Part shown: one piece after another, positions 12,681-51,318 of the stretch
How the letters are laid out: each line of letters starts with the position of its first letter
How positions within the stretch are numbered: the stretch's first letter is position 1
NCBI GenBank assembly: GCA_964016885.1
Contig: OZ024747.1
Span: 6,696,001-6,760,000, forward strand
Origin: Eledone cirrhosa
Lineage: Eukaryota
Direction: 5' to 3'
DNA length: 64,000 nucleotides
Notes under the pieces: generated by a model
Seen by the model: only the letters and a program-made list of their open reading frames with translations
The model's database searches: none
Told to the model about the DNA's origin: nothing
Translations under genes and position numbers: made by a program

Positions 12681-13482
12681 ACTATAGAGTAAAGCATGTC
12701 CAGAGAATTATTTGATAATATATATACATAATCTCTACTCCCAATCAGCATAATTAACCACACAAAAAATCAATTAGACCAGGCTATAAGAATAAAAGGC
12801 ACCTATGAAGAAACATTAAATAAATACGCCACAGCAGCGTCTTTGCGTCCAACCGCTATAGAATATTTACCCAACATTCCAACAGCACGTGGAAATTAAT
12901 TAATTAAATATACGGTCAACCATACATAATTAAGTAAAATTAAAGTTAGAAATGCTTATATACATACCAGGATTAAATCACTAAATCCAGACCCATGGGT
13001 TTCGCTCACATTTTGAGATATCTTATTAAGTATAAATCTCGAGTTTAGAGCTCTTCAGGGGACAAACTCGCTAGGCCAGATTATTTTCCGAAGTGGCCCC
13101 CGCCAAACACGAATTCTTTTACCTAATTATGTATGGTCGACCGTATATTTAATTAATTAATTTCCACGTGCTGTTTAAATGTTGGGTAAATATTCTATAG
13201 CGGTTGGACGCAAAGACGCTGCTGTGGCGTATTTATTTACTGTTTCTTCATAGGTGCCTTTTATTCTTATAGCCTGGTCTAATTGATTTTTTGTGTGGTT
13301 AATTATGGTGATTGGGAGTAGAGATGATGTATATATATTATCAAATAATTTTCTGGACATGCTTTACTCTATAGTATTTTGCTCTGATTATTTAATTTAT
13401 TAATTCTTCATTGAGCCACATCGTGAATAGTTGCCAAAACACATATATACTTGTGACTTTGTTTAATTGGTGTATCTGTAAA

Positions 13483-13490
<8 letters not shown>
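12679..13490. mobile_element. fold-back element (261-bp inverted arms), probable Penelope-like pLTR derivative
   Basis: Arms 12679-12939 and 13117-13377 are reverse complements with about 8 mismatches. The right arm extends ~110 nt further. (TA)n on both sides; hammerhead motif in the spacer. Confidence 0.8.
12985..13063 (-). ncRNA. type I hammerhead ribozyme (minimal, Penelope-type), near intact
   Basis: Minus strand: gtccc-CTGAAGA-gctc[~40-nt loop]gagc-GAAA-c-ccatgg-GTC-tggat. Stem II gctc/gagc, palindromic stem III acccatgggt, GUC cleavage triplet, stem I with one mismatch next to the core. Confidence 0.7.
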
Positions 13491-13532
<42 letters not shown>

Positions 13533-13535
<3 letters not shown>

Positions 13536-13722
13536 CGAAGGAAATGTGGTAAGGAACCAGGTGGACCATAACGCACCAAAGTACTCTATACTTAGGGTAG
13601 TAGAGTGGGTAATAGGAACAAGTAAGACCCCGACAGCTGAGCTCAAGCCGTTTCGACGGCTAATTCTGGACTGAATTAGCCGTCGAAACGGCTTGAGCTC
13701 AGCCGTCGGGGTCTTACTTGTT

Positions 13723-13727
<5 letters not shown>
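13533..13727. mobile_element. fold-back element centred on hammerhead stem II (copy 1)
   Basis: 55-bp arms 13612-13666 / 13673-13727 with 1 mismatch. Each arm carries GAAAC-ggcttgagctcagc(c/t)-GTC-gggg. The left arm extends to 13533; (TA)n on both sides. Confidence 0.8.
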
Positions 13728-13756
<29 letters not shown>

Positions 13757-14048
13757 GAGAGTAGGTGGGAAAGAAAGGTAAAGAGATAGGTGTATAGAAA
13801 TCGTTGTGTAGAGATATCTACAGAGTTTAATACATTTGTTTACCTGAAGGCAGAAAGTACACAAGTGCGGGTGTAATCGATTGACACAATTGTATATTGA
13901 GAGATGTGGACGACATTGTGGACAGCTGAGATGTTTCAGCAGCCACCCTCCCCCGGCACACAACTCCGCCATCACTAGTAAAACAGTAAAGCCTCTCAAC
14001 TATCTACCACTATATATATATATATATATACTGTGTGTATATATATAT

Positions 14049-14236
14049 ATAGGAAAATGTTTAACCCCGACAGCAGAGCTCAAGCCGTTTCGACGGCTAT
14101 TTCCAGAAATAGCCGTTGAAACGGCTTGAGCTCTGCCGTCGGGGTTAAACATTTTCCTATTACCCACTCTACTACCCTAAGTATTGAGTACTCTGATGCG
14201 TTATGGTCCATCTGGTTCCTTACCACACCCCCTTCG

Positions 14237-14240
<4 letters not shown>
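14049..14240. mobile_element. fold-back element centred on hammerhead stem II (copy 2, opposite orientation, diverged variant)
   Basis: Arms 14049-14103 / 14106-14160 with GAAAC-ggcttgagctctgcc-GTC-gggg. The long arm to 14240 is homologous to the reverse complement of 13533-13611. (TA)n on both sides. Confidence 0.8.
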
Positions 14241-14311
<71 letters not shown>

Positions 14312-50984: not shown

Positions 50985-50986
<2 letters not shown>

Positions 50987-51030
50987 AGGAAAAGGTATGA
51001 CCCCGACGGCAGAGCTCAAGCCGTTTCGAT
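50985..51030 (-). mobile_element. third fragment of the 13533/14049 hammerhead family
   Basis: Minus: tcGAAACggcttgagctctgccGTCggggtcataccttttcctat, between (TA)n tracts. Confidence 0.8.
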
Positions 51031-51073: not shown

Positions 51074-51318
51074 ATTAGAAAATAGAATAGTTTTCACCGT
51101 ATTTTTGACTAAAGGAATTTTAGCCTGATAATGGGGTTTAGAACCCTCAGATAAATGGAAAAAGATGTACATGTACGTCAATACTCATCTTTTTCCATTT
51201 CTCTGAGGGTTCTAAACCCCATTATCAGGCTAAAATTTCTTTAGTCAAAAATACGGTGAAACCTATTCTATTTTCTAATTTCAAACCTGCTCACTGTTTC
51301 AAAACATACTTACTTGAT
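51074..51318. mobile_element. asymmetric fold-back element between (TA)n tracts
   Basis: 94-bp arms 51074-51167 / 51186-51279 with about 3 mismatches; the right arm extends ~37 nt further. Confidence 0.8.

Follow-up and report, generated by a model that had tools for sequence, protein, structure and literature searches.

Palindromic stubs of a Penelope-like retroelement in Eledone cirrhosa carry half a hammerhead ribozyme and probably join two separately primed cDNAs

Introduction

According to the available text of PMC8557442 and PMC3846280, EN+ Penelope-like insertions have head-to-head, inverted and 5'-truncated pseudo-LTRs (pLTRs) with a tail on one arm, form partial tandems, carry a hammerhead ribozyme in the pLTR and show no clear target duplication in (TA)n. 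The family described here shares these features. With the Hydra clade, as characterised in part of PMC8557442, it also shares a C-terminal GIY-YIG, RWR in place of RWK, DKT, CxCX5C, CxxC/CxH around E and N, and insertion into (TA)n. The same source names the formation of inverted Penelope-like insertions and the role of their hammerheads as open.

Here we analysed a 64,000-nucleotide stretch of Eledone cirrhosa DNA (contig OZ024747.1, positions 6,696,001 to 6,760,000; hereafter the window). The original prediction placed in it two near-perfect palindromes with GAAAC...GTC-GGGG arms, and both were present, at 13613-13726 (palindrome A) and 14050-14159 (palindrome B). Judging from their sequence, each is a separate insertion, a stub of ~190 bp derived from a Penelope-like retroelement of the Hydra type. 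The inversion layout, the Hydra clade and the U3-A8 ribozyme core are all already known, and the family itself may already be in published supplements, for example the Hydra sequence files of PMC8557442. A literature search of titles and the starts of abstracts, with subscription papers and supplements outside its scope, returned neither twin priming of Penelope inversions nor a start site inside a hammerhead.

Results

Palindrome A contains one mismatch and a 6-nt centre, TGGACT, and palindrome B contains two mismatches and the centre CA. All arms read, in order, GAAAC, GGC ttgagctc(a/t) GCC, GTC and GGGG. In A, the (TA)n target on the left (13486-13534) is followed by the tail-bearing arm on the minus strand (13533-13672), which by family alignment runs from the inferred +1 A at 13672 (AGTCC) through GAAA (13654-13651) and the GTC site (13632) to a ~80-bp tail ending in (TA)n. 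The six bases that open A's longer arm, AGTCCA, would be +1 to +6 of the inferred RNA, and the centre (13667-13672) is their reverse complement. The tail-less arm on the plus strand (13673-13726) begins at +7, contains GAAA at 13685-13688 and the GTC site at 13707, ends with GTTCC-TA and is followed by the (TA)n target on the right (13725-13752). A spacer at 13755-14010, without a match among the other loci fetched from the genome, separates A from B. In B, the tail-less arm on the minus strand (14050-14103), which differs from A in subfamily, ends in (TA)n; the tail-bearing arm on the plus strand (14104-14239) begins at +4/+5, contains the hammerhead 3' half with C11.1 changed to T, and has a ~80-bp tail before the (TA)n target on the right (14238-14279).

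Both elements had been taken as symmetrical, but each carries its tail on a single arm, and both lie inside (TA)n. The outer inverted repeat (13533-14240) consists of two units about 85% alike; because these belong to different subfamilies and have opposite orientations, they represent two separate insertions. The family has left a third and shorter remnant on the minus strand (50985-51029), likewise in (TA)n, which consists of a single tail-less arm cut at TCGA. It adjoins a 204-bp palindrome of a further repeated family (51075-51278) that was present in several fetched loci. An inverted repeat at 12790-13266, with 150-bp arms 97% alike, has a hammerhead-like CTGAAGA between its arms on the minus strand and belongs to a different family. 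Repeat-finder output for the window was dominated by (TA)n, and long blocks between 2000 and 47000 show extreme GC skew (up to 0.99) and resemble simple-repeat arrays.

We then considered the parent element. RT-like and then GIY-YIG-like frames lie upstream of the ribozyme in loci L061 and L079, and both copies are frameshifted; a Pfam search of these frames gave no RT match and a weak GIY-YIG match (E=0.069). Sixty-three loci run beyond the tail, and most of the 30 that were read continue via a 5' UTR to an ORF beginning MRKHNIDF, 100 nt beyond the tail. An open frame across the arm (SRISRR...) was dropped as the ORF start in favour of this position. The parent motifs are RWR, DKT (L079) or DKS (another copy), a CxCX5C linker, and CxxC and CxH without CCHH (read by eye, L061 4888-5463). 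In partial tandems (L171, L180, L184, L186, L188, L190, L193, L204 and others), a whole ribozyme lies directly upstream of the tail, 5' UTR and ATG. The copies also show the EN+ Penelope-like hallmark of an inverted 5'-truncated copy with a one-sided tail, as well as the Hydra-clade preference for (TA)n. Homology extends to about 2.6 kb across copies rather than within one full-length copy, compared with under 3 kb in the Hydra clade. Judged by the match of its motifs to the published description, the family is probably a member of the Hydra clade. A non-LTR retrozyme was rejected, as it needs tandem monomers each with a whole hammerhead, according to the available part of bioRxiv 10.64898/2026.07.22.740005, whereas the copies here are head-to-head half-ribozyme stubs.

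A DNA search of the same genome (3.0 Gb) recovered full-length look-alikes that were 86-97% identical, all lying in (TA)n and differing at the centre. When the tail-bearing arm was searched for with an exact pattern, there were 17,260 matches and none for the reversed control, so that there are at least 17,260 arms. We sampled the first 100 exact matches on one contig, a set that requires an intact TAGCC and is biased to young copies; one extra match outside the pattern was dropped. The sample comprised 80 short palindromes (~190-bp stubs in TA repeats), 6 arms with a whole upstream ribozyme and 14 others. The tail-less arm ended at a single point, offset 51, in 50 of 66 measurable copies. Arm lengths formed a continuum from 60 bp to 2 kb, always with the same one-sided tail, and longer head-to-head pairs of unequal lengths likewise had one tailed and one tail-less arm. 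Subfamily letters were common to both arms in 52 of 67 pairs, compared with 15% under random pairing, and most of the other 15 differed at one site, which fits later mutation. Rare changes were unshared between arms in 100 cases and shared in 6, indicating that the arms are not kept homogenised. The original prediction had offered repeated inversion or homogenisation within each copy: the results favour the former, the palindrome being made anew at each insertion with differing junctions, and speak against the latter. Locus L172 (27009300-27014500 of the sampled contig) contains head-to-tail 257-bp units, each restarting at TAGTCC and reaching the first ORF codons.

Intact family copies read CCCC-TTGANAA-G, a long helix II, GAAAC, a 5-bp helix III, GTC and GGGG. 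The core TTGANAA was present in 14 of 20 aligned intact copies, with A, C, G or T at N, and the remaining 6 were without the 3-8 pair (C3-A8 or another mismatch); a sister-family copy has C3-G8. Fold prediction gave a three-way junction in three of five natural copies. The helices showed no covariation within the family alone. When the sister family was added (151 matches), 91% of cells were paired and helix II showed a G-C/A-U change; three pairs changed on both sides, essentially one family split counted many times. As predicted from these alignments and folds, the intact copies carry a type I hammerhead with a CCCC/GGGG helix I and a U3-A8 core. U3-A8 is a published core variant of Penelope-like hammerheads, for example Cercyon of Schistosoma (available text of PMC4209133).

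Window copies A and B are without the 5' core and the 5' strands of helices I and II. Because intact family copies carry this missing 5' half, the motif in the window is not a chance match and is, as proposed, the 3' half of a real hammerhead. The proposed CCCC upstream was found together with a TTGANAA core; CTGANGA, the core that had been expected with it, occurred in no native parent among the 48 rows found upstream of the 3' half. Those 48 rows were rejected as parents, being junction chance matches or pieces of other families. An Rfam scan of the window showed no hammerhead among the 150 of 169 matches listed, which were mostly microsatellite-driven miRNA matches. TTTAG as a splice acceptor splitting the ribozyme was dropped, helix II being continuous in intact copies. 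Loci L063, L068, L069, L070 and L073 form one subfamily with a C3-A8 core mismatch that is nevertheless widely spread, and this subfamily offers a natural test of the need for cleavage. In L033, L034 and L041, the hammerhead 5' core of another family is joined in the same orientation to the 3' half of this family; these chimeric, ribozyme-like sequences, found via a biased pattern, look as if they came from template jumps at the RNA 5' end.

The original prediction also held that each half hammerhead could be cleaved in trans by an intact member. For transcripts across A and B, the predicted hairpins have energies of -95 to -110 kcal/mol; adding the native 5' half to copy A in a co-fold gave no energy gain. 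A single arm with the native 5' half reached -29.4 vs -15.5 kcal/mol, but not in the hammerhead fold, and its GAAA box lay in an alternative hairpin. In the window, the GAAA box of the half ribozyme at 13678-13693 is predicted in the loop of such a hairpin, formed by GCCGT and ACGGC; this pairing would keep the 5' copy locked. On these predictions, trans-cleavage of A and B by an intact 5' half appears unlikely.

We next mapped the centres, which had been placed in the loop of stem II and attributed to a cDNA snapping back on that stem. Measured upstream of TAGCC, the A of AGTCC (+1) lies at 10 nt, the apical loop at 14-21 and the helix II 5' strand at 37-45; in intact copies, this strand starts roughly 45 nt before TAGCC, and an apical stem-loop is enclosed. 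In A and B the symmetry centre falls short of the loop, on the 3' strand of the helix, at 4-10 nt before TAGCC. What had been called stem II is a mirror image of the arm, the native 5' strand being absent. The strict junction table covered 79 palindromes, with one very long centre excluded; permissive matching inflated arm extents. Under strict matching, 155 of 158 arms stopped no more than 14 nt from TAGCC, within four bases of the fixed A and many at 9-10, whereas snap-back would need about 40; the tabulation refutes snap-back as a general rule. The joins comprised 28 with microhomology, 21 blunt and 30 with filler, and centres with no loop or one base were common. Both arms reached +1 in 3,139 loci, and many arms extended to -1 to -4, for which either a heterogeneous 5' end or added bases would account. 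Sister-family arms stopped at the homologous AGTTC/GTTC (691 loci), while an unrelated hammerhead family had its centres about 110 nt upstream of its own ribozyme (257 loci). The ribozyme fold does not set the position of the centre. A search for arms with the native 5' strand gave 74 matches (some loci duplicated) and among them no true helix II snap-back product; four that resembled one came from the looseness of the search pattern and are ordinary mirror arms in which the native loop is missing. At one locus (two rows), the join falls on the native CGGCT strand. Junctions could have been blurred by deletions that arose later at the palindrome centres.

The base composition of the junctions was then assessed by counting the G:C junctions and the G-bearing arms by hand. 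When a single base separated two +1 arms (553 loci), it was G:C in 46 of the first 50, and the genomic base at this place is T. One position further in (+2; 273 loci), the control gave G:C in 4 of the first 50 (Fisher p 1e-18). In the 100-copy sample, the filler base beside the A was G in 6 of 7 cases, compared with 9 of 53 elsewhere. Among the first 100 of 340 loci, the G was on the tail-less arm in 43 and on the tail-bearing arm in 57, and several junctions had G on both arms. The fixed A sits in TTAGT/TCAGT, kept in the sister family, and this context resembles an initiator. A TATA-like box lies near -30 in this family, with none in the sister family. In L1 and SVA, an untemplated 5' G has been interpreted as the copy of a cap (available text of PMC4859970), and in Penelope of D. 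virilis a start site lies within the pLTR (available parts of PMC8557442 and PMC2377424). We infer from the junctions that the fixed A would be the transcription start and the G a copied cap; the G could instead stem from an untemplated C that RT adds, which would still mark the template end. In four unlabelled contig runs from one study, loose (TA)n ends were seen where both arms end, and depth changed in a step near +1; since RNA ends cannot be read from contigs, these runs are given zero weight.

Discussion

The explanation that we consider probable is that two cDNAs, each primed by one target strand, are copied from Penelope-like RNA as far as its likely capped 5' end, where they run off, and that the two products are then linked head to head. 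The element RNA would start at the A of AGTCC/ATTTAGTCC, within helix II of its own hammerhead, so that the catalytic TTGANAA half would be missing from its 5' pLTR copy and the sole whole ribozyme would be the 3' copy. Both strands of the cut (TA)n target would prime reverse transcription at two internal RNA sites 80 nt apart. Priming within the 5' pLTR copy would give run-off cDNAs of 60 and 140 nt, and hence stubs; closure of the centre would fall to host end-joining. One Penelope-like protein (Anolis Poseidon PAc) has been shown in vitro to cleave and extend both target strands and to start reverse transcription at two internal sites bounding the tail (available text of PMC11167929).

In the DNA, the arms end at two fixed 3' points, and both stop at or just short of the fixed A. 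The tail-bearing arm was clearly longer in 45 of 79 copies and the tail-less arm in 21. A longer tail-less arm, together with a G on the tail-less arm, is not producible by copying the tail-bearing strand. Head-to-head joins with another hammerhead family, at or near its own centre, made up 5 of the 48 rows of the CTGANGA search (L054 with a G), and such cross-family joins are rare, at about 1-2% of events. The subfamily letters common to both arms indicate that two different RNAs are rarely used, and one RNA, or one active source, would usually supply both cDNAs; intramolecular copying predicts the same agreement.

That agreement, with the six shared rare variants, also fits an alternative that we consider unlikely, in which a single cDNA, having run to the same RNA 5' end and acquired some untemplated bases, would fold back and prime itself; cutting or joining of the second arm at CCTA would come later and leave the tail on one side. 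The more frequent excess of the tail-bearing arm (45 vs 21) and templated fillers resembling snap-back synthesis are in line with it, but it gives neither the longer tail-less arms (21/79) nor the G on the tail-less arm (43/100), and it does not yield centres whose loop has one base or none, nor the joins of one family to another.

It is less probable still that the palindrome is a non-autonomous element in its own right, one that is ready-made, spreads as a unit and suffers erosion of its centre once inserted. Instability is a known property of palindrome centres, and uniform outer ends with a very high copy number would suit such an element. However, several subfamilies each have matching arms, the arm continuum from 60 bp to 2 kb retains the same one-sided tail, erosion would not put G at one site, and the 100 unshared against 6 shared rare changes show that the arms are not homogenised.

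The published proposal of self-priming on an antisense template was put forward for the same head-to-head layout in a rotifer (available text of PMC3846280). It appears improbable here, leaving unexplained both the G that, on either arm, immediately precedes the sense +1 A and the tandem units that restart at the same point. Snap-back of the cDNA on the ribozyme's own helix II, with the fold dictating the centre, is hardly credible: helix II exists, a 3' hairpin is predicted for a cDNA extended to 45 nt upstream of TAGCC and one locus joins at the CGGCT strand, but arms end 25-35 nt short of the 5' strand, none of the 74 arm matches is a true product, and another hammerhead family centres far from its ribozyme.

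Taken with two separately primed cDNAs, the start site allows a tentative and rather doubtful reading as a self-limiting switch. The start inside the hammerhead would disarm the 5' copy, leaving the 3' copy as the one that can cut; cleavage would strip the coding RNA of its 3' priming sites, the 5' sites alone would remain, and most transposition would end as ~190-bp twin-primed palindromes. If this were true, a G on either arm would be genomic proof of two-strand priming and would replace antisense self-priming for Penelope inversions. Thousands of junctions with a base-resolved signature favour two separately primed cDNAs over self-priming and match recent in vitro chemistry. Such priming would explain more than ten thousand near-perfect ~110-nt hairpins scattered in the genome, and it offers one nucleotide, the +1 A, as a testable point. 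In L1 twin priming, the two pieces are different parts of the RNA, whereas here the same 60 nt is copied twice.

Common to both systems, on the reading favoured here, is that two target-strand primers give inversions and that a 5' G is read as a copied cap, as set out for L1 in the available text of PMC4859970. With Anolis Poseidon PAc (PMC11167929), the family would have in common that both strands are nicked and extended at AT-rich DNA with two internal RT starts bounding the tail, and a predicted dimer is a further likeness; PAc belongs to a different clade, and in the available part of that paper inverted insertions are left unexplained and cap signatures unused. Minimal hammerheads of Penelope-like elements, as described in the available text of PMC4209133, are likewise of type I with a helix I of 4-5 bp, a long helix II with G10.1-C11.1 and U3-A8 covariation, whereas here helix III has its full 5 bp with a 9-nt loop, and helix II has an apical extension that would contain the inferred start site. 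Compared with the Hydra clade in the available part of PMC8557442, the ribozyme core here is U3-A8 and not canonical. Finally, the tail of EN+ Penelope-like insertions is 30-40 bp in the available text of PMC8557442 and PMC3846280 but about 80 bp here, and, unlike those insertions, most copies in the sample (80 of 100) are stubs of ~190 bp that hold half a ribozyme. In contrast to the antisense self-priming of PMC3846280, the junctions of this family point to two first-strand cDNAs.
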